Part shown: piece by piece, positions 5,194 to 40,470 of the stretch
How positions within the stretch are numbered: the first letter of the stretch is position 1
Layout of the letters: each line of letters starts with the position of its first letter
Assembly (NCBI GenBank): GCA_947646585.1
Contig: CANSHD010000001.1
Coordinates: 313,210-377,209, forward strand
Length of the DNA stretch: 64,000 nucleotides
DNA from: an uncultured Alphaproteobacteria bacterium
GTDB lineage: Bacteria; Pseudomonadota; Alphaproteobacteria; Rs-D84
Reading direction: 5' to 3'
Program-made: the position numbers and the translations under genes
Notes under the pieces: generated by a model
Told to the model about the DNA's origin: nothing
Databases searched by the model: none
What the model saw: the letters and a program-made list of their open reading frames with translations, nothing else

Positions 5194-6546
5194 TTGTCCA
5201 GGCAAAGCGGAAATTTTTTATTACAGGCCCTGCTGGCATTGTCTTTAATTTTTGCGTTCATTCCATTCTGGGCAGAGCGTCTGGCGGCGCGCGAAACAGA
5301 CGCCCAGATGTATTCCGCCACGCGCCAGGTTGATGTCGCGGTGACCGCCGCGCGTATATTCATCCGTGAAAATGCGTCCAATATCGGATATGACCGGACG
5401 GTTGTCGCCGGCGCCGATTTCGGTGATTTGCTGGAACCGTACGGCCTGCCACTGGGGTTTGTGCCGCGCACGGCCCTGGGCCAGGATATCAGCCTGGTTA
5501 TCAACAAGACCCCGCAGGAGGTGACGGCTTATCTTGAGCTGTCGGGCGGAAATTTGTCCGCGGTGCGTACCGCGGAATTGGCGCGCCGCATCGGGTTCTA
5601 TGCGACGCCGGTCGGTTCGGTTATAAATGTCGGCATCGCCCTGGACGAGGGGTTTTCCGACGTCGTCCGCCGCAATGAAAATAATCTGGAGGCGGGCGCC
5701 TTTTTAACCGACCTGGACATGGGCGGGTTTGTGTTTGACAATGCCGGCGCCGCGATTGCGCGAACCGGCACGTTTAATACGGCGATGACGAACACTTTGT
5801 CCGTCGCGGGAACGGAAAACGGCCGCAAGGTTCGCAACAAGATAGAGGATTTGTCCGCCACGCGCGCGGTGTTCCAAAGCAAAAGCGGCGAGGCAGCATT
5901 ATCGCTGGTTCGCGGAACATTGACCGCGGACAGTGTCGATGCGCGCACCGTCGCGCGGTTTGGCGATGCGGGGAATTTCACCGCGGACACCGCGTCCGTG
6001 TATGAGTTTTCCATGACGGCGGGCCGCACGGGATTTTCGGGCCCCGGCGCCTGGAACGTCCGCGGCAACGTCGTGTCCGACAGAATAAATTTCAGTGTGG
6101 AACGCCTGGACGTGTCGTCGTATATAAATGTCGCCCGCGGCCAGGACGTTTATATAAATGATGATTTGGAATACAGCGCGCGCAGTGGGATAGAAACCGA
6201 TACCTTAATCGCATCCAATGTCACGATGCGCGACCAGACGTCCGACGCGTTGTCGTCGGGCGGGACCGGCGCGGTTGTTGTTGACGTCCGCCCGGCGGGA
6301 ACGTCTTATCTGCCGGACGCGTATGTTAACAATGTCGACAACGCCGCGTTTGAAATTATTGCGGCCCCCGATGGCGCGGACGGCAAGACCGTCGATTGCA
6401 AGGCGGTCGTGTCACAGCTTGACGCTTCTTATAATCAGCGCAGCCTGTCGCAGTACATAATATGCCAGTATGTATACTGGCAGCGGCTGGAGATGCGAAT
6501 GAACATAATACAGTGTCTAAAGGAAGGTCGCGGTGACTGCATGTAA
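5194..6546 (+). CDS. Large prepilin-like membrane protein, first of three tandem paralogs.
   Basis: TTG start 7 nt after SD ggaggg. Leader 'MSRQSG' followed by 'NFLLQALLALSLIFAFIPFW' with G at -1 and Q at +5. About 420 aa extracytoplasmic domain. Shares '…RT…I…IG…VG' and 'L.MGG' blocks with the next two ORFs. Confidence 0.6.
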   Translation: MSRQSGNFLLQALLALSLIFAFIPFWAERLAARETDAQMYSATRQVDVAVTAARIFIRENASNIGYDRTVVAGADFGDLLEPYGLPLGFVPRTALGQDISLVINKTPQEVTAYLELSGGNLSAVRTAELARRIGFYATPVGSVINVGIALDEGFSDVVRRNENNLEAGAFLTDLDMGGFVFDNAGAAIARTGTFNTAMTNTLSVAGTENGRKVRNKIEDLSATRAVFQSKSGEAALSLVRGTLTADSVDARTVARFGDAGNFTADTASVYEFSMTAGRTGFSGPGAWNVRGNVVSDRINFSVERLDVSSYINVARGQDVYINDDLEYSARSGIETDTLIASNVTMRDQTSDALSSGGTGAVVVDVRPAGTSYLPDAYVNNVDNAAFEIIAAPDGADGKTVDCKAVVSQLDASYNQRSLSQYIICQYVYWQRLEMRMNIIQCLKEGRGDCM

Positions 6547-11088: not shown

Positions 11089-14000
11089 ATGAGTCTCTTT
11101 AAAAAATCAATTGGTTTTCTGGCTGTTTTGACGGCATTTCCGGCGTCATATGCATTGACGGCACGGCCCAGTGTCATCGGTACCGCGTCGGCGCGTATGC
11201 CCACAATGACGGCGTTGATTACAAACACCGGCACGTCCGGCACGGGGTCGACCACAACATCAACATTGCTGGCAAACGCCGAATGCATTGATGCATACAC
11301 GTCGTGTATGAAGGGTGGCGACGCCTGTGGTTCTGATTTTGAAGAGTGCACGAACAAGGTTCTGTTCCACGGCAAAATGCCTCAGTGTCTGTCCACTTTG
11401 GCTCAGTGCAGCACGGCCGGCGTGACCAGCCTGTTCGGTACCGGCACGGTAACGGCGTTGTCCACCGTCGCGACCAAGAACAGCTATGGCGAGGTGACGG
11501 ATTACACATACCCCACCGACGGCAGTGTTCTGGGCCAGTTGATTACCGGTGCGGCGATATCGAACAAATATGACACGTCCACCTGTGTAAAGCGCTATAC
11601 GTCATGCTTAAAGAAAGACAGTGTCTGCGGCAATGATTTTGAACTTTGCACAACCGACAAAGAATTTAGAAAACAGCGCGTATTCTGCGATTCCACTTTG
11701 GCCCGCTGCCAGTCTGAGGGCTTGATTGAACTGTTCGGCAGCGCCAACACATCGACCACGCCCGCCGCAGCCAGCCGCATTGGCGAAATGATTGCCGAAG
11801 GCGCGGCATTGGCGGCTGTAAACGCGGTATCCACATGCTACAAGGTTGTGGACCAGTGTATCTTGAACGCATGTGCGACGAACCCGTACAAGTGCTTTGA
11901 AAACAGCACGAACGCCACCGTAAGTTTGGTTGAGGCCATCAACACCGGCGTCGCCACGGCGGAAAACACGGCCGCATCCACAATTGCGAACGTTACATCC
12001 GGCATGGATATCGTAACGAAATCCAACGTTGCGTCTTATATCAAGAACAGCTGTCTGGACACAATCGGCTCCAACAAATACTGCTATGCCACGTTTATCG
12101 GCAACGGCCAGATGCCGACCGCGTCCCAGCTGAAAGACGAAGACAACCAGGAAGAAATCTATGACGAGGCGTATGCCGCCCGCATGAGCAGCGCCATGAA
12201 GGCCAAGATTTCCGATTTGGTCGATCAGTTTGACACCAAGGCAAAGCAAAAGTGCACCGAAACAATCAAGACATGCGTAATGCGCGTCTGCGGTTCCGGA
12301 TCCGGGGCGGCCTGCTATTCCCAGGTGTTCGGCAATCGTGACAAGTCCATCAACAACAGCGTGACATATCCGGAACTGCAGACCGGCTGTGCGGCGGTTG
12401 TCAACACGGATGCATATTGTAAGTATGCCGCGGCAAATCCGAATACAACCGGCGGTTATACATATTCTTATATAAACAACGATGCGTTCAGCATTCTGTT
12501 CCCGGAATATGAATCCGGCGGCAACGACCCGATTGGCGTTATCTCCGCGTTGAACGCGACGCTGGCCAACAGCTACAGCGACGCGGCCATCGCCACGATG
12601 AAGCGCCAGTGCCAGGCGGTCGCGACATCCTGCGTCAAATCCATGTGCGGCACGGATTACCAGAACTGCTATCGCAACCGTACGGACGTTTATTCTTCTT
12701 TGACCAACACCGGCGATTCGTCGTTTGACAAATCAATGAACAAGGTTGGCGGCGTTCTGGATTACACAATCGTTTTGGGCCTATGCCTGGATACGGTTAA
12801 ATCCGCCTCTGTCTGCGAAGAACATTTGGCGATTGAACGCAACAAGCTGAAAATTGCAAACAATTCCAAGGCCTCTGTCTGGGGCGGTGCGAACAGTTCG
12901 CGCGAAGGTTGGATTGACGCCGGCTCTGCCACGGCCGTGACAGCAACCAGCGAACAGGTTGCGGCAACCGACGAAAACGGTAACGCTTTGTGCACAAACA
13001 AAAACGGCACACAGCAGGGCGTCTGCTACAGCGCCGACTGCGAGGGTGGCTGTACCGAACCCGTATATATCTCATATACGACATATGTTGAATCACAGGC
13101 GGCGTCGACCCTGTTCAAGGATTTGATTTACGACCTTGAAAAAGAGGCTCAGGCGAAATATAACGCGAAATTAACGAAGCAGCAGAATATGTGCATGTCT
13201 TCGAACCAGGGCGGCGTTATGGGCAACCGCGACATGGGCAGCACGTTCCTGTGGGTAAAGCTGAAGTCCAGCACGGTGCCAAAGGCATACCCGGTATCGG
13301 GCCTGAAGCCGTCGCAGTTCGCGGCCAGCAACGACCTGTACGGTTCATTCTGCCGTGTCCGCATAACACTGCAGTCCGATGACAAAAAGATTCAGGACGT
13401 TATCGCCAAGGGTACCGATTGGGCCACGGCATATTTCGCGGCGGGTGATACGTTTACCTGCGGCTCCTGGATTCCGGAAAAAGCGTTGACCCAGCTGGCC
13501 GATGCGGTTGCAAAAGACGCCCGCGCGGACGAGGCCCAGGGCAACGGCAGAACCAGGGCTTGGATGGCTGTTCTGGGAACAGTCGCCGGCGGTGCATTGG
13601 TTGGTGTCGCAACCAACAAGATGCAGGACGGCGCATTCCTGGGCGGACTTTTGGGAACCACCGGCAGCAATACCGGCGACACACAGACAACTGTTGATAA
13701 CTGTGTAACGGCGGCGACATATTATACCGGCTCCAAAGACGCCAATGACCGTTCCTCGTATTTGGCGCGTGCGGTAAAGAATGCCCGTACATTGGGTGTT
13801 GACTCTACAATAATAAGCCAGTTGAACGAAGCGCATCTGGCATATTCGGATATTGCCGGCACAACCGCACCTGCCGTGACAGAAGCGGACCGCCAAGTTC
13901 AAAAGAGCGCAACGTTTATTTCACAAGGTAGCCGTGTCCCCGATGAGACCATGTCAAATACTATTAGACAAAATTTGGGGCTAGAAACATATACAAGCGT

Positions 14001-14589
14001 TTCTTTAACAGGTGTATCTTGTGAATTCAATTGCACTGCATTCACAAACGGTAGATATACAGGTCAACGTTTTGATATTTGTGGTGACAAAACAGGGCCG
14101 GGTTGGTATCAGATAACATCATTGGCCGACTGTCAGAACACCAGTGACCAAGATATACGCAATCCGCAATATACATACACTGTATATTATGAAGATGCAG
14201 ATGCGAAAAGATACAACGACACTTTGGCGACAAGTCGTAGCGAAGCGGCGAGCTATCCGTCGAAAATTGAGGAAAAGCGCCAGGCAGCTAATACTGCGAT
14301 GAACAGATTGTCCACGGCATGCCAGGAAAAAGCGCCGAACGATGATGCGAAAAAGAAAGAAGCGCAAAAGCGTTCCATCACAACGGCCGTTAGTGCGGGT
14401 GTTGGTGCGATTGCGGGCGGTGTGCTGGCGTATCAGGCGACCAAGAGCATCCAGAATTCCAAACTGGACAGCGTTGAAAAAGCCGCCTATGACGAATGGA
14501 TGAACGAAGTCGGTAATCATATCCGTTGCTTTGTCGGTGGCGACGAGGTAGGTATGTACGGCGATATCATCAGCACGTCGATGGAGTAA
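11089..14589 (+). CDS. Large secreted cysteine-rich repeat protein, 1166 aa, with a possible C-terminal membrane anchor.
   Basis: Signal peptide 'MSLFKKSIGFLAVLTAFPASYA'. Two roughly 52 aa internal repeats (CIDAYTSCMKGGDACGSDFEEC… and CVKRYTSCLKKDSVCGNDFELC…). Many C-x5-6-C-x4-5-C modules. Hydrophobic segment 'ITTAVSAGVGAIAGGVLAY' near the C-terminus. Confidence 0.7.
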   Translation: MSLFKKSIGFLAVLTAFPASYALTARPSVIGTASARMPTMTALITNTGTSGTGSTTTSTLLANAECIDAYTSCMKGGDACGSDFEECTNKVLFHGKMPQCLSTLAQCSTAGVTSLFGTGTVTALSTVATKNSYGEVTDYTYPTDGSVLGQLITGAAISNKYDTSTCVKRYTSCLKKDSVCGNDFELCTTDKEFRKQRVFCDSTLARCQSEGLIELFGSANTSTTPAAASRIGEMIAEGAALAAVNAVSTCYKVVDQCILNACATNPYKCFENSTNATVSLVEAINTGVATAENTAASTIANVTSGMDIVTKSNVASYIKNSCLDTIGSNKYCYATFIGNGQMPTASQLKDEDNQEEIYDEAYAARMSSAMKAKISDLVDQFDTKAKQKCTETIKTCVMRVCGSGSGAACYSQVFGNRDKSINNSVTYPELQTGCAAVVNTDAYCKYAAANPNTTGGYTYSYINNDAFSILFPEYESGGNDPIGVISALNATLANSYSDAAIATMKRQCQAVATSCVKSMCGTDYQNCYRNRTDVYSSLTNTGDSSFDKSMNKVGGVLDYTIVLGLCLDTVKSASVCEEHLAIERNKLKIANNSKASVWGGANSSREGWIDAGSATAVTATSEQVAATDENGNALCTNKNGTQQGVCYSADCEGGCTEPVYISYTTYVESQAASTLFKDLIYDLEKEAQAKYNAKLTKQQNMCMSSNQGGVMGNRDMGSTFLWVKLKSSTVPKAYPVSGLKPSQFAASNDLYGSFCRVRITLQSDDKKIQDVIAKGTDWATAYFAAGDTFTCGSWIPEKALTQLADAVAKDARADEAQGNGRTRAWMAVLGTVAGGALVGVATNKMQDGAFLGGLLGTTGSNTGDTQTTVDNCVTAATYYTGSKDANDRSSYLARAVKNARTLGVDSTIISQLNEAHLAYSDIAGTTAPAVTEADRQVQKSATFISQGSRVPDETMSNTIRQNLGLETYTSVSLTGVSCEFNCTAFTNGRYTGQRFDICGDKTGPGWYQITSLADCQNTSDQDIRNPQYTYTVYYEDADAKRYNDTLATSRSEAASYPSKIEEKRQAANTAMNRLSTACQEKAPNDDAKKKEAQKRSITTAVSAGVGAIAGGVLAYQATKSIQNSKLDSVEKAAYDEWMNEVGNHIRCFVGGDEVGMYGDIISTSME

Positions 14590-14604
14590 GCCACAATAAA
14601 CCAA

Positions 14605-14636
14605 AAACGCCCCATAATGGGGCGTTTTTATTTGAC
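14605..14636 (+). terminator. Rho-independent terminator after the Cys-rich gene.
   Basis: 'acgcccca-taat-ggggcgt' hairpin followed by a T-run. Confidence 0.7.
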
Positions 14637-14653
14637 CGGATTACACACCCCCC

Positions 14654-15037
14654 TGTCATTGCGAGGAGGCGCTTGCGCCGACGCGGCAATCCAGAATAAA
14701 GCGGCAACGTTCATCAATTTACTGGACCGCCACGCTTATCACCCACAAAAATTTTCAATTTTTGCGGGGCCCGATGACGCTCGCGGTGACAACGAGTCTT
14801 AATTTTGCACTTTGTACCCAGTGTCATTGCGAGCCCGCAGGGCGTGGCAATCCAGAAAGGAGGAGGTAATGTTCATTAATTAACCGGATTGCTTCGCTAA
14901 CGCTCGCAATGACAATGATTCAAGTACGACCAAGTGTCGCTCGGCCAATGGCCTGCGCGTATCCTCGTAGTTGCTCGAACAAATTCTCGCATACTCGGAT
15001 TCATTGCGGGGAGGCGTATGCCGACACGGCAATCCAG
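14654..15037. repeat. Cluster of at least three copies of a MITE/REP-like inverted-repeat element (locus 1).
   Basis: Units carrying 'TGTCATTGCGAG…GCCGACG(C/T)GGCAATCCAGAA' and inverted partners 'CTCGCAATGACA' or 'GGATTGC'. The same family recurs at 24562–24777 and 30282–30432. Confidence 0.75.
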
Positions 15038-15049
15038 ATGTAATATATG

Positions 15050-15331
15050 TTATCTTGTCACCGTACGCAGAGCCTGCATCGCAGCACTAGTGTATTTCAA
15101 TTGATTTTTGGCGTCATAATACGCGCCGTATGCGTCGATAAATGCGTTGATGGTTGCTGTGCCACCGCTGGGCCATATGGCGTATCCCGTCGCCAGTTCC
15201 ATTAACAAACATGTGCCGGCCACCGGTCGCCATTGCAGCGGCAGGTCGATGAAATTGTCATATCCGTGGCGCACCGCCACGCGACGGCATTCCGTGATAA
15301 GAGATTCCAGTACTTGGTTGCTTATTTTCAT
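15050..15331 (-). CDS. Hypothetical small protein, 93 aa, translationally coupled to rlmN.
   Basis: Its ATG overlaps the rlmN TGA in an ATGA arrangement. Coding-like codon bias. No recognised domain. Confidence 0.4.
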   Translation of the reverse strand: MKISNQVLESLITECRRVAVRHGYDNFIDLPLQWRPVAGTCLLMELATGYAIWPSGGTATINAFIDAYGAYYDAKNQLKYTSAAMQALRTVTR

Positions 15332-16437
15332 TTTTCGTTCTTTTTTGCGTTGTTCAATCGCAGCTGGCCGCATGCACTGCCGATGTCCGTGCCGCGTTCG
15401 CGACGAATGCGCGTGTGGATGCCACGGCGGATAAGTGTGTCTTGGAAACGATGAACCGCGTTGCCAGAGGGGGATGCGAAATCACGCTCGTCAACCGCGT
15501 TCCACGGTATTAAATTTACCATGCAATTTTTGCCATGCAACAGCGTTGCCAGTTTTTCCGCATGCTCTTCCGTCGCGTTGTATAATTCCGTCTCTCCGTC
15601 CGAATTTTTACGCCCCAGCAGTATGTATTCAATCATCAACTGGCGGTTGTGCAGATTTGTAAAATCATCGGCCGCGGCCAGAACCTCGCCCAGCTTGTAT
15701 TTATTGTTAATCGGCATGATTTGCCCGCGCAGTTCGTCTGTCGGCGCATGCAGCGATATCGCCAAGTTTATCGGCCGCCCCCATTCAATCAGACGGCGAA
15801 TTCCGGGCACAATTCCGCATGTGGAAACCGTAATACGGCGCCACCCGATGCCCAAATCCTTGTTAGCGCGTTCTATAAAATCAATAACGTTTTCGGTGTT
15901 CTGCAGCGGTTCGCCCGTGCCCATGATAACAATGTGAGACACATCGCCGTTATTTGCGTCACCGTTTGGCCGCACGTTTGTTTTGTCCGCCCGATTGCGG
16001 CGCAGTTCCCATTGTGCAACCAACACCTGGGCGAATATTTCGTTTGCGGTTAAATTCCGTTTCAGCCCCAGCAGCGTGCTGGCACAGAATCGGCAACCCA
16101 TGGCGCATCCAGCCTGAGAGCTCACACACACGCTGTTTCCATATGTCGTTCGCATTAAAACGCATTCAATCTGCTCGCCGTCCTGCATTTCCAATAAAAA
16201 CTTGGTTGTTTCGCCGTCGCCGGAATCCAGCCGCCGCACAATCTTGCACGGCAATGTCTGGGCCGCGTCGTCCAAATCACGCCGCAATGTTTCCGGCAGG
16301 TTCTTCATCGAGGCAAAGTCCGGCGCTCCGCGCCCCAGCCATTCACGAATTTGCGTCGCACGAAACTTAGGCAGGCCGCGCGCCGTTACAAATTCGGAGA
16401 GCTCTGCGTCTGTAAAATTGAATAAAACGGGTTTCAT
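15328..16437 (-). CDS. rlmN: Radical-SAM 23S rRNA (A2503 C2) and tRNA methyltransferase RlmN.
   Basis: 'CAMGCRFCAST' is a CxxxCxxC radical-SAM cluster. 'MGTGEPL' and the C-terminal 'GSACGQL' are typical of RlmN/Cfr. Confidence 0.85.
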   Translation of the reverse strand: MKPVLFNFTDAELSEFVTARGLPKFRATQIREWLGRGAPDFASMKNLPETLRRDLDDAAQTLPCKIVRRLDSGDGETTKFLLEMQDGEQIECVLMRTTYGNSVCVSSQAGCAMGCRFCASTLLGLKRNLTANEIFAQVLVAQWELRRNRADKTNVRPNGDANNGDVSHIVIMGTGEPLQNTENVIDFIERANKDLGIGWRRITVSTCGIVPGIRRLIEWGRPINLAISLHAPTDELRGQIMPINNKYKLGEVLAAADDFTNLHNRQLMIEYILLGRKNSDGETELYNATEEHAEKLATLLHGKNCMVNLIPWNAVDERDFASPSGNAVHRFQDTLIRRGIHTRIRRERGTDIGSACGQLRLNNAKKNEK

Positions 16438-24529: not shown

Positions 24530-24566
24530 AAAAGCAAAACGCCCCGTCCGGGGCGTTTTTTCTGGA
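24530..24566 (+). terminator. Rho-independent terminator after infB.
   Basis: 'aacgccccgtccggggcgtt' followed by a T-run. Confidence 0.7.
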
Positions 24567-24777
24567 TTGCCACGGTCATTTCACTCCCTCGCAATGACAA
24601 TCGTTCCGGGGCCACTGTCATTGCGAGGAGGCGCTTGCGCCGACGTGGCAATCCAGAAATAAAGCGGCAAAGTTCATCATTTACTGGACCGTCACGCATA
24701 CGCTCGCGGTGACAATGTGCTTAAGCGCGACATTATGCACCTTTGTCATTGCGAGCCCGCAGGGCGCGGCAATCCAG
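24562..24777. repeat. MITE/REP-like element cluster (locus 2).
   Basis: Begins with the inverted terminus 'CTGGATTGCCACG'. Contains 'TGTCATTGCGAGGAGGCGCTTGCGCCGACGTGGCAATCCAGAA' and the 'GTCATTGCGAGCCCGCAGGGCGCGGCAATCCAG' variant. Confidence 0.75.
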
Positions 24778-24811
24778 TAAATATTTGCTTTTCTCAAGTT
24801 TTCTGATATAA

Positions 24812-24973
24812 TTCACAACGCATCGGGTGATACCCGGTGTGAGGTGTAGAAACCTCCTAAAAGGAAAAACTCCACGATTGGTTGGAGGCCCGTGATATAT
24901 CCAAATAAGCGGGACTATCTTTTAGTAGTTTCTAACCTCCAACCGCCCTTCATCACGGCGGTGTTTTTATTTT
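24812..24973 (+). ncRNA. Candidate structured leader or small RNA ending in an intrinsic terminator, upstream of the XRE regulator gene.
   Basis: Nested hairpins cggg/cccg, gaggt/acctc, and a 9-bp long-range stem ggttggagg…cctccaacc. Terminator 'accgcc-cttcatcac-ggcggt' plus T8 sits 20 nt before the XRE SD. Confidence 0.3.
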
Positions 24974-24994
24974 TAAAAACCATTGGAGGAAAAA

Positions 24995-25279
24995 ATGAAA
25001 TCAGAAAAACCGGATGAAATGGCCCTGCGTCTTGGCTCTGCATTACGACATGCGCGGATTGCATGCCGCATGGACCTGAACGAGGCGGCCACGCTGTTGC
25101 GTATAACACCCAAAGAGCTGGGGTATTACGAGCGCGGCGTATCAAAAATGCCAACAGATATAATAGAACGTATGGTGTTGTTGGGCTATAAAATGATAAG
25201 GATGCGTGTTCTGGAAAATACGTATCGTCGGTATCGAAACATATTTCGTAGATTATCCGCAATAGAGCGAGATAAATAA
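24995..25279 (+). CDS. XRE-family helix-turn-helix transcriptional regulator.
   Basis: HTH 'LNEAATLLRITPKELGYYERG'. SD ggagg 6 nt before the ATG. Confidence 0.6.
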   Translation: MKSEKPDEMALRLGSALRHARIACRMDLNEAATLLRITPKELGYYERGVSKMPTDIIERMVLLGYKMIRMRVLENTYRRYRNIFRRLSAIERDK

Positions 25280-30227: not shown

Positions 30228-30281
30228 AAGAACATAACGCTCATTCCGGGCGTTTTTTATTTGACCTGATTATGGTTCCGT

Positions 30282-30432
30282 TGTCATTGCGAGGGAACGG
30301 AGTGACCGCGGCAATCCAGAATAAAGCGGAATAGTTCATTATTTATTGGATTGCTTCGCTACGCTCGCAATGACAATGAGGCTAGCCCTGTTGTCATTGC
30401 GAGGAGGCGCCTGCGCCGACGTGGCAATCCAA
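30282..30432. repeat. MITE/REP-like element cluster (locus 3).
   Basis: 'TTGTCATTGCGAGGGAACGGAGTGACCGCGGCAATCCAGAATAAAGCGGAATAGTTCAT…GGATTGCTTCGCTACGCTCGCAATGACAATGA' plus a second unit 'TTGTCATTGCGAGGAGGCGCCTGCGCCGACGTGGCAATCCA'. Confidence 0.75.
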
Positions 30433-30515
30433 AATCATTTTTGATAATTTTTCCCTTTGATTTTCATTCGTATTGTATATAGTTGTGCGGCTTTAACAAA
30501 AAATGGACATGGAAA

Positions 30516-30779
30516 ATGAAAGAAAAGACAAAACAGGATATCAAGGAATGGTTTCAAATGTTGGGCTTGGCTGCGGCCGGCGGGATAGTCGTGTTTCACG
30601 TGAACTCCTTTTTTAAACCGTCCGCCCCCGACAAGGATGCCGCCCCGCACGGCATAGAGCGTATTATTGAAAAGGCCGACACCATCGTTCCGCGCGACAG
30701 CATAACGGCAATGAACCGTATGCGCGCCGCCAGGGAAGTGTTTTTTGACGGTATGAGCCGCAATCTGCCGACGCGTTAA
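30516..30779 (+). CDS. Small hypothetical membrane protein.
   Basis: One TM segment 'LGLAAAGGIVVFHV'. Start taken at the internal ATG (MKEKTKQD). Confidence 0.3.
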   Translation: MKEKTKQDIKEWFQMLGLAAAGGIVVFHVNSFFKPSAPDKDAAPHGIERIIEKADTIVPRDSITAMNRMRAAREVFFDGMSRNLPTR

Positions 30780-35235: not shown

Positions 35236-35553
35236 GTGCGGGCTCTCAAGTTGAGATGAAACGAAAAAAGAAATCTCAACCTCTAGGAAATTCGGCGGTT
35301 CGCAGGTAATTCTGAGGGAATCGCAACATTGTGAATAAAAGCAGCTCATCAAAAATTCAAGAAGGGATGTGCAGACAGTTGAATTTGGAAATATCCAAAC
35401 TTTGACTAAGTCAAATGTGCATATCCTAGACAGGTAGTAGGTTTACATATTAAACCTCGTTAAAAACTTGTCTTGCGAATAAATATATGTAAAGACGAAC
35501 TGATATTATGTCAGTGTTGTTTATGCACAGGACTTAAACCACAAGTTTTTTAG

Positions 35554-37054
<1,501 letters not shown>

Positions 37055-37138
37055 ATAGAGAATACCGTTTCCACGAAAACGGTCAAATCCAAAGCGACTG
37101 TCTGAACATCTCTTTTTGAAAATGGGTATAATTCTGCT

Positions 37139-37215
37139 GGGTCAGTAGTTCAGTTGGTTAGAATGCCGCTCTGATACAGCGGAGGTCGAAGATTCGAGTT
37201 CTTCCTGACCCACCA
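37139..37215 (+). tRNA. tRNA-Ile (anticodon GAT) in the 16S-23S spacer.
   Basis: Acceptor GGGTCAG/CTGACCC. Anticodon stem CCGCT/AGCGG, loop CTGATAC. T-loop TTCGAGT. CCA encoded. Confidence 0.9.
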
Positions 37216-37521
37216 CTTAAATTGATGAGGTTGGAATCAAAAACAAATACTTGTTTTTGATTCCAGATGTTCTGATGAATATCTTCGGAATCTGCTTTTA
37301 TTAGCAATCATTGTAAATCGGTTTTTAATGTCGTAAATCAAACTTTATGGAAACATGACTTTTGATTTATTGAACATCGTAATCTCAAAAATCTTTCTAA
37401 ATAGAGTAATCACGAAAGTGATAATTCAATTAGAGAAGCAAGAATCAACTTAAATGCTTAAAAAACTCATTAAGTTCTTTTGATTGTGTTTGAAGACTTT
37501 CTCTTCAAGCATAAGATAAAA

Positions 37522-40258
<2,737 letters not shown>

Positions 40259-40354
40259 TTTTTATCTTATCGTTTGACTTATGTCAGACGATTGCTTGAA
40301 GAGAACGTTGACATTGATTCTTGAATCATGTATTATGATGTTCGCTGGATTTAT

Positions 40355-40470
40355 TCTGGTGATTATTGAGCGGGAGCCACCCTCTGTTCCATTCCGAACC
40401 AGACAGGGAAACCCCGTATCGCCGATGGTACTTTGGCTTAAGCCACGGAAGAGTAGGTCGTCGCCAGAGT
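40355..40470 (+). rRNA. rrf: 5S ribosomal RNA.
   Basis: '…CCATTCCGAACCAGACAGG…CGCCGATGGTACTTTGGCTTAAGCCACGGAAGAGTAGGTCGTCGCCAGA'. Terminal helix TCTGGTGA/TCGCCAGA. Confidence 0.85.

Follow-up and report, generated by a model that had tools for sequence, protein, structure and literature searches.

The three intergenic loci at positions 14654-15037, 24562-24777 and 30282-30432 of the window, the whole 64,000-nucleotide (64-kb) stretch of an uncultured alphaproteobacterium that was analysed here, are most probably clusters of CGTC-tagged repetitive extragenic palindromic (REP) hairpins of the Ssn-related kind, a subfamily with the stem ATTGC/GCAAT. This is a genuine interspersed repeat family that varies from strain to strain. 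It is not new in kind, as it belongs to the superfamily of CGTC-tagged REPs and Ssn-related hairpins. The original prediction, made from the sequence alone, had called the family novel, but its anatomy matches that of both groups (PMC3733652; PMC11893778). The evidence points to a milder novelty: a subclass with a GAG loop, which includes ATTGCGAG, is very widespread, is present in phages, tracks a clade of GIY-YIG nucleases and escapes the published search pattern for Ssn-related motifs (SRM). We describe below the anatomy of the units, the covariation of their stems, their distribution across phyla, their polymorphism among relatives and the association between nuclease and hairpin.

The coordinates and the core motif of the three loci, as first reported, were correct by exact counts and by a fuzzy scan. 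The 12-mer TGTCATTGCGAG occurs in nine exact copies in the window compared with 0.36 expected, and none of 100 shuffles reached nine. Seven exact copies of GGCAATCCAG were found, every one within the three loci. The fuzzy scan of both strands resolved 12 hairpin units in clusters of five, four and three (Table 1). The predicted repeat copies were thus real, while the number of two to three per locus was too low. The units have the layout TGTC-ATTGC-GAG-[variable GC-rich stem-loop]-CG(W)(R)-GCAAT-CCAG, and all 12 were predicted to fold into hairpins whose outer stem has 5 bp and whose inner stem-loop varies. The outer stem is ATTGC/GCAAT in 10 of the 12 units, opening with an A-T and a T-A pair. 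It is replaced in U2 and U8 by ACCGC/GCGGT (AC...GT start), which is a compensatory double change. Above the outer stem lies an asymmetric purine-rich internal loop, with GA opposite GAA, GTG or GCG, and the inner stem is GC-rich and free to vary, mostly with a C-GNA-G triloop at its tip. Each unit owes its polarity to the unpaired tag (T/C)GTC at the 5' end and the tail C-C-A(G) at the 3' end, which likewise stays unpaired. The tag is TGTC in 11 units and has decayed to ATTC in U5; the tail is CCAG in nine units, CCAA in two (U11 and U12) and CCGG in one. No Rfam family was found for the units at gathering or permissive thresholds, which returned only terminator-like noise, and full-text literature searches with the unit consensus sequences returned unrelated primers only.

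Table 1. Hairpin units, dimer linkers and intrinsic terminators at the three loci, in window positions.
Feature	Position	Strand	Description	Basis
Terminator 1	14602-14630		bidirectional intrinsic terminator between the 1166-aa open reading frame (+) and the rlmN operon (-); cluster 1 starts 24 nt later	
U1	14654-14694	+	type A (inner GAGGCGCTTGCGCCGACG)	fuzzy scan, fold
Linker of U1/U2 dimer	14695-14721	.	AATAAAGCGGCAACGTTCATCAATTTA	sequence reading, repeat family
U2	14722-14791	-	stem variant ACCGC/GCGGT	fuzzy scan, fold
Nested hairpin	14736-14777	-	42-nt hairpin in U2 loop	fold, comparison of relatives
U3	14822-14855	+	type B (inner CCCGCAGGGCG, C-GCA-G triloop)	fuzzy scan, fold
Homologous linkers	14856-14883, 24657-24684, 30320-30345		homologous to the U1/U2 linker	
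U4	14884-14914	-	type C (inner CGTTAGCGAAG), head-to-head with U3	fuzzy scan, fold
U5	14999-15037	+	decayed (ATTC tag, GGG for GAG)	fuzzy scan, relatives
Terminator 2	24536-24561	+	infB intrinsic terminator, T-tract abutted by U6	
U6	24562-24599	-	type D	fuzzy scan, fold
U7	24616-24656	+	type A	fuzzy scan
U8	24685-24714	-	ACCGC-stem variant, head-to-head with U7	fuzzy scan, fold
U9	24744-24777	+	type B	fuzzy scan
Terminator 3	30236-30259	+	intrinsic terminator after tRNA-Val	
U10	30282-30319	+	type D	fuzzy scan
U11	30346-30375	-	type C (minimal-type inner CGTAGCGAAG), head-to-head with U10	fuzzy scan, fold
U12	30392-30432	+	type A (tail CCAA)	fuzzy scan, fold

The copies had been described as tandem or nested, which was imprecise. 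Unit orientation alternates strictly within each cluster (+-+-+, -+-+ and +-+ at loci 1, 2 and 3), and four head-to-head dimers with the tags outside are formed (U1/U2, U3/U4, U7/U8 and U10/U11). An A/T-rich linker of about 27 nt, AATAAAGCGGnAAnGTTCATnAnTTTA, is homologous across all four of them. The U3/U4 linker, AAAGGAGGAGGTAATGTTCATTAATTAA, reads as a strong Shine-Dalgarno sequence, an ATG, three codons and a TAA (MFIN*), and the other three linkers are decayed forms of it. On a speculative note, this linker could be the start and stop of a gene left over from a hairpin-gene-hairpin ancestor. The perfect 42-nt hairpin nested in U2, with the core CCCCGCAAAAATT-GAA-AATTTTTGTGGG, has a single copy in the window; it is present in two related genomes (L341 and L342) and absent in two others (L338 and L339), and this variable presence reflects either another very small insertion or a polymorphic deletion.

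To follow the loci in other genomes, relatives were taken from the 90%-identity protein clusters of the window genes. Contigs of the same species are identical to the window at the infB locus. Short-read assemblies of this species break in or beside the clusters, for example at U7, as is expected of a multi-copy repeat. Three independent assemblies end at window position 24961. In the relatives L335, L336 (GCA_948535845.1) and L337, the T-tract of the infB terminator runs straight into the downstream promoter with zero units, and exactly at this empty junction the window holds its 216-nt block of four units. No target-site duplication was found when the filled site was compared with the three empty ones. 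A fourth relative, L334, has one (+) unit plus other DNA at this locus. At locus 1, the intergenic length was 221, 298, 319, 319 and 461 nt in five genomes. The U1/U2 dimer is common to all five, while U3 was found in the window, L338 and L339, and U4 and U5 are absent from the latter two. U5 is intact in L341 and L342 and decayed in the window, and L339 holds one extra unit. These results indicated that the unit arrays turn over between close relatives, and the presence/absence polymorphism that had been suggested as a check was seen at both the infB locus and locus 1. Each cluster does follow the terminator of a specific gene, as it would if the units were gene-specific conserved structures of 3' untranslated regions (UTR) instead of an interspersed repeat. 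However, the window alone has the same units behind three genes that are unrelated to each other, hundreds of further unrelated genes are followed by them elsewhere, and relatives have either nothing or a different filling at the orthologous sites, which excludes such structures; we give this explanation practically no weight. Confinement of the motif to the three sites as conserved 3'-UTR structure was the outcome that the original prediction had set against itself, and instead the motif occurs elsewhere and the relatives are polymorphic.

The clusters had also been placed behind rho-independent terminators, and every cluster indeed begins 0-24 nt past an intrinsic terminator. The rlmN operon on the minus strand has its stop codon at 15050 and its only minus-strand terminator at 14630-14602. 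Cluster 1 lies in between, and therefore would be transcribed as 3' UTR, so that an RNA-level side effect of this cluster is possible. The units might even act mainly as RNA, as hairpins of the 3' UTR that make mRNA 3' ends more stable or reinforce termination, a role proposed for the REPs of Escherichia coli, with an incidental DNA-level link to the nuclease. This agrees with the position of cluster 1, with the gene-distal, intergenic site of all clusters and with the folding of the hairpins under RNA parameters. We nevertheless regard it as unlikely, since clusters 2 and 3 are located past the terminators of their upstream genes, the units occur in both orientations, and the fold energies of single units are no better than those of shuffles (z-scores from -0.2 to -1.7). 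Moreover, the whole infB cluster is missing in three relatives, and SsnA, the nuclease of the published Ssn system, does not bind RNA (PMC11893778). The terminator and the first (+) unit are separated by about 22 nt that are alike at independent sites (14631-14653, 30260-30281 and positions 5430-5455 of L334). These stretches read ATTTGACCGGATTAC..., ATTTGACCTGATTAT... and GGACCATATTAC..., and are similar to the CTGGATTGC tail that a unit in minus orientation has. They may derive from a partner unit that was truncated, or belong to the mobile segment upstream of the tag.

The spread of the motif was investigated with the search pattern TGTCATTGCGAG-N(6-36)-GCAATCC. At least 120 matches were obtained in the IMG/VR viral collection and at least 120 in a one-genome-per-species collection, where roughly 130 would be expected by chance in the whole 596 Gb. 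Among the genome matches listed, 134 of 144 units end their inner part with CGAA, CGTG or CGCG. This signature lies outside the search pattern and has a chance frequency of about 1%, which indicates that the genome matches are true family members. The family consensus is TGTCATTGCGAG-[stem-loop]-CG(AA/TG/CG)GCAATCC, with the minimal form TGTCATTGCGAGCGAAGCGAAGCAATCC, and the terminal loops are mostly the triloops C-GAA-G, C-AAA-G, C-GCA-G and C-GTA-G. In DNA, GNA triloops have exceptional stability. The genome matches listed represent more than 15 bacterial phyla. Those in Proteobacteria cover the Alpha-, Beta-, Gamma-, Delta- and Epsilon- classes (Bradyrhizobium, Novosphingobium, Micavibrio, Rickettsiales, Neisseriaceae and Helicobacter rodentium). 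Further matches belong to Chloroflexota, Bacteroidota, Firmicutes, Patescibacteria, Cyanobacteria including Gastranaerophilales, Planctomycetota, Spirochaetes, Gemmatimonadota, Nitrospirota, Ignavibacteriales, Zixibacteria and Opitutaceae. By blastn, the unit was also found on plasmids of the cultured organisms Methylosinus, Methylocystis, Novosphingobium, Halomonas, Legionella, Trichormus, Calothrix and Tolypothrix, and in uncultured phages from human faeces. The proposal of a REP/BIME-like interspersed hairpin repeat was borne out.

The genes neighbouring the units are unrelated housekeeping or phage structural genes. Clustering of the neighbour genes of the 240 listed phage and bacterial loci yielded no shared gene and no recurring transposase family; a shared neighbour is not expected if one nuclease gene serves many hairpins. 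These data also bear on the suggestion that the elements are miniature inverted-repeat transposable elements (MITE) or mark mobilisation derived from an insertion sequence (IS). A conventional MITE would be a deletion derivative of an IS with a DDE transposase, bounded by terminal inverted repeats and target-site duplications. The head-to-head dimers do form inverted-repeat units of about 94 nt (e.g., 30282-30375), and the mini open reading frame of the U3/U4 linker (AGGAGG-N5-ATG...TAA) is a possible remnant of an internal gene. However, each arm is a self-contained, self-folding hairpin with its own polarity tag, single, lone units are found in most genomes among the matches listed, and the filled infB site lacks a target-site duplication. 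No IS with matching terminal inverted repeats was found near the units in the 240 listed loci; the gene associated with them is that of a GIY-YIG nuclease of about 95 aa. A MITE origin is thus very improbable.

Some arrangements outside the window differ from those within it. The phage contigs L019, L112, L026 and L061 carry up to 15 units on a single strand only (15:0, 12:0, 7:0 and 7:0). Their units often form head-to-tail arrays with a periodicity of about 41 nt, an arrangement called negligible for bacterial CGTC REPs. Positions 1-360 of L127, a metagenome-assembled genome of a gut alphaproteobacterium, contain a module of about 156 bp in tandem, made of a (+) unit, a linker starting AGAATAAA, a (-) unit and then a unit with the compensatory stem ATTAC/GTAAT. 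When all fetched loci were scanned for the unit subtypes and linkers of the window, the head of the window linker was found elsewhere in L127 alone.

The CGTC-tagged REP superfamily was described by Di Nocera, De Gregorio and Rocco (BMC Genomics 2013; PMC3733652). In its members, which are short stem-loops, the terminal CGTC tag stays unpaired; it is "changed to TGTC... in many repeats", and CCTC is another variant. Their stems start with complementary A-T at positions 1 and 2, and their unpaired tails mostly fit CCA. They lie in intergenic DNA downstream of open reading frames, mainly as head-to-head dimers with the tags outside, and have no associated transposase; none flanks a tyrosine transposase gene. 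They are commonest in Alphaproteobacteria and include dRS3 of Neisseria and RPE-4/6 of Rickettsia (PMC3733652). The window units agree with them in the tag, the A-T stem start (10 units), the CCA tail, the head-to-head dimers and the intergenic site, and their source belongs to the class where CGTC REPs predominate. The lack of a transposase is likewise shared, as no such family recurs near the units of the 240 listed loci. Moreover, Novosphingobium aromaticivorans, one of the CGTC species of that study, carries CGTCATTGCGAG...GCAATCCAG as a head-to-head dimer. In the plasmid pNL2 of this species, CGTCATTGCGAG...CAAGCAATCCAG, 17 nt and CTGGATTGC...CTCGCAATGACG follow each other between two co-directional genes. 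This hairpin is the ATTGCGAG hairpin of the window, but with the canonical CGTC tag. Neisseria dRS3 and Rickettsia RPE-4 and RPE-6 have the tag, the CCA tail and a stem starting with AT in common with the window units, and the Neisseria repeats form large intergenic clusters. On the other hand, the stem sequences of dRS3 (ATTCCC...GGGAAT), RPE-4 and RPE-6 differ from that of the window, and their stems are perfect and these repeats lineage-restricted. Grouped clusters are rare in CGTC REPs (PMC3733652), while all 12 window units are clustered, and the breadth of more than 15 phyla plus phages is far above the five phyla reported for CGTC REPs.

The Ssn system, its NTS and the Ssn-related motifs were reported by Chenal et al. 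(Nat Commun 2025; PMC11893778). In this system, a single-domain GIY-YIG nuclease of 94 aa named SsnA (cd10448) has the NTS (CGTCATTCCCGCGMAVGCGGGAATCYRG), an extended dRS3 repeat, as its binding site. SsnA binds and cuts single-stranded DNA (ssDNA) only, on the tagged strand only and a few nt upstream of the motif. Cleavage depends most on the 3 nt upstream of the palindrome and binding on the C just after it, and the catalytic mutants are Y6A, Y17A and E64A. In Neisseria meningitidis, the system modulates natural transformation. The ssnA genes are flanked by their own motifs in 71% of cases, and a homologue is encoded in 81% of the genomes rich in motifs; the authors of that study put forward as a hypothesis only that the hairpin-ssnA-hairpin unit resembles an IS (PMC11893778). 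The window units share the NTS frame CGTC-ATTCCCGCG...CGCGGGAAT-CYRG, keep the head HGTCWY and the tail RNCYNB of the published SRM pattern, and conserve the determinants of SsnA, namely the three nucleotides that precede the palindrome and the C that directly follows it.

A nuclease of this kind was encountered beside the units themselves. Three of the 120 listed genome loci, which had been chosen for the unit alone, encode a GIY-YIG protein, and in L244 and L161 its gene has ATTGCGAG units on both sides. A database search with the L244 protein gave 7,973 homologues; those listed are about 95 aa long, contain PF01541 only and mostly lie on very short contigs. In the alignment of this clade (A2), Y5, Y16 and E64 are invariant, which parallels the residues mutated in SsnA (Y6, Y17 and E64), and both proteins are small and single-domain. 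NCBIfam has no model for the clade, and its only solved relative is the UPF0213 protein 1ZG2 (E = 6e-7), a match indicating that the clade is distinct from UPF0213.

To evaluate the association, 80 metagenomic loci encoding the clade were fetched with the alignment. A tagged hairpin lies within 300 nt of the nuclease gene in 67 of them, and on both sides in 44. The density of tagged hairpins was 4.7 per kb near the gene compared to 0.34 per kb further off, a 14-fold enrichment. The frame TGTC-stem-GAG-[inner]-CG(AA/TG)-stem-C(C/T) is common to all hairpins flanking the nuclease, while the stem varies: ATTCT was commonest (84), followed by ATTGC (45), and ATTCC, ATGCT, ACCCT, ATCCT and ATCCC also occur. 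Among hairpins chosen with the stem left free, 22 of 31 were fully Watson-Crick paired, relative to 3.9 in shuffled sequences, with nine different stem sequences. Hairpins of the ATTGC type accompany 15 of the 15 nucleases nearest the L244 type and 8 of the 65 others (p = 7e-11), which fits either co-evolving pairs of nuclease and hairpin or simply shared ancestry. Distant GIY-YIG genes of phage contigs served as a negative control, and the 27 examined had essentially no flanking tagged hairpins; the one nearby match (L357) looks like chance. A lone hairpin that satisfies the SRM pattern flanks L278, a locus of the same clade, and thereby links the clade with the motif as published. The nuclease is seldom encoded in phage contigs, where five close homologues were found, one of them flanked by hairpins.

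The association also bears on the possibility that these are classical REP/REPIN elements moved by a RAYT, a Y1 HUH transposase of the IS200/IS605 type. BIMEs of Escherichia coli and REPINs of Pseudomonas resemble the present units as tagged imperfect hairpins with a conserved unpaired 5' tetranucleotide, in inverted dimers with a short spacer and in mosaics of alternating orientation behind genes; GNA triloops of the DNA type are also frequent in the units. The parallel extends to a single-copy gene for an enzyme acting on ssDNA hairpins, flanked by its own repeats. However, the tag here is (T/C)GTC instead of GTAG, no Y1 or other transposase family recurs beside the units in the 240 listed loci, and the associated gene encodes a GIY-YIG nuclease instead of a HUH Y1 transposase. 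Together with the published absence of tyrosine transposase genes beside CGTC REPs, this makes a RAYT an improbable agent.

With the units read as CGTC-tagged, Ssn-related hairpins, the following mechanism is proposed as the most likely. Once the DNA is single-stranded, a unit would fold into a two-tier hairpin. By analogy with SsnA, a stand-alone Ssn-type GIY-YIG nuclease of about 95 aa, whose gene would typically be located between two such hairpins, may bind the tagged strand as ssDNA and may nick it a few nt 5' of the (T/C)GTC tag. Units would build up in trans in intergenic DNA that tolerates them, immediately behind terminators, where they would persist and multiply as head-to-head dimers and alternating clusters, being gained and lost between close relatives. 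The source alphaproteobacterium presumably encodes a cognate Ssn, which would act on the ATTGC-type units and would drive their spread.

Several points weigh against this assignment and its mechanism. No GIY-YIG/Ssn gene was found in the 64-kb window by a motif scan or by a six-frame search with a profile hidden Markov model of the clade. The likeness of the clade to SsnA is indirect, through PF01541, the length of about 95 aa and the residue pattern, and cleavage of ATTGC-type hairpins is a prediction. Furthermore, Ssn was demonstrated to cut, not to transpose (PMC11893778). The published SRM pattern, HGTCWYN(0-2)YYVSBRHN(0-5)WNVSBRGN(0-2)RNCYNB, which is a search tool and not a functional definition, matches none of the 12 window units, where the stem TGCGAG and the internal loop fail YYVSBRH. 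It matches only 1 of the 312 hairpins around the clade in the 80 metagenomic loci. Because the pattern fails, equating the window subclass with the tested NTS is an extrapolation; by the same token, SRM-based surveys would under-count the family. Published CGTC REPs have a stem of 8-9 bp and a loop of 4-5 nt. In the window units, by contrast, perfect pairing spans 5 bp and gives way to a GA/GWR internal loop, beyond which the inner stem-loop measures 6 to more than 50 nt. The units are assigned here at the level of the superfamily, above its groups CGTC-1 to CGTC-4.

A few features around the loci were also recorded. Three small open reading frames beside the clusters (15050-15373 on the minus strand, 24983-25279 and 30483-30779 on the plus strand) were considered as divergent GIY-YIG genes and proved unrelated. 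The 1166-aa open reading frame (11089-14589), the "Cys-rich gene" of the original prediction, has no Pfam match, and its orthologues in relatives are 1078-1191 aa long. Between the infB cluster and a helix-turn-helix gene (24780-24975), a promoter-like TTTGCT-N17-GATATAAT is followed by a conserved, structured stretch of about 170 nt ending in the terminator-like hairpin CACCGCC...GGCGGTG TTTTT. The stretch is conserved also in relatives without the repeats and gave a sub-threshold Rfam match to sRNA-Xcc1 (33.6 bits compared with a gathering score of 53, E = 2e-4); it may be a small RNA (sRNA) or a leader. In L334, a further ATTGCGAG unit (TGTCATTGCGAGCCCCGGCGGGGCGCGGCAATCTCGG, positions 5940-6000) replaces the terminator-like hairpin that closes this sRNA-like region in other genomes. 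The rRNA operon at 35553-40469 has a 16S-23S spacer with tRNA-Ile alone (no tRNA-Ala was called), which is unusual for Alphaproteobacteria.

An apparently novel repeat is now classified and has a testable partner, an Ssn-type ssDNA nuclease. The classification explains the breaks of short-read assemblies at the clusters of the source species. The data suggest two gaps in the published picture: the SRM pattern misses nearly all hairpins around a large GIY-YIG clade, and the family extends to Firmicutes, Chloroflexota, Patescibacteria, Cyanobacteria and phages. The results are also relevant for annotation, as the hairpins yield recurrent spurious open reading frames such as "...SLRAKRSNP..." and "...DCFASLAMT", and for mining Ssn nucleases as ssDNA tools. 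We tentatively propose, as a bolder and rather doubtful possibility, that the GAG-loop hairpins (TGTC-stem-GAG-[inner]-CG(AA/TG/CG)-stem-C, with ATTGCGAG as one stem type) form a distinct, perhaps the largest, Ssn specificity class whose stem co-varies with the nuclease lineage, and that dimers without a gene are non-autonomous derivatives of a hairpin-ssn-hairpin mobile unit. If this is true, a class present in more than 15 phyla and many phages would be invisible to the published SRM definition, and a GIY-YIG nuclease would drive a REP-like transposition system parallel to RAYT/REPIN.

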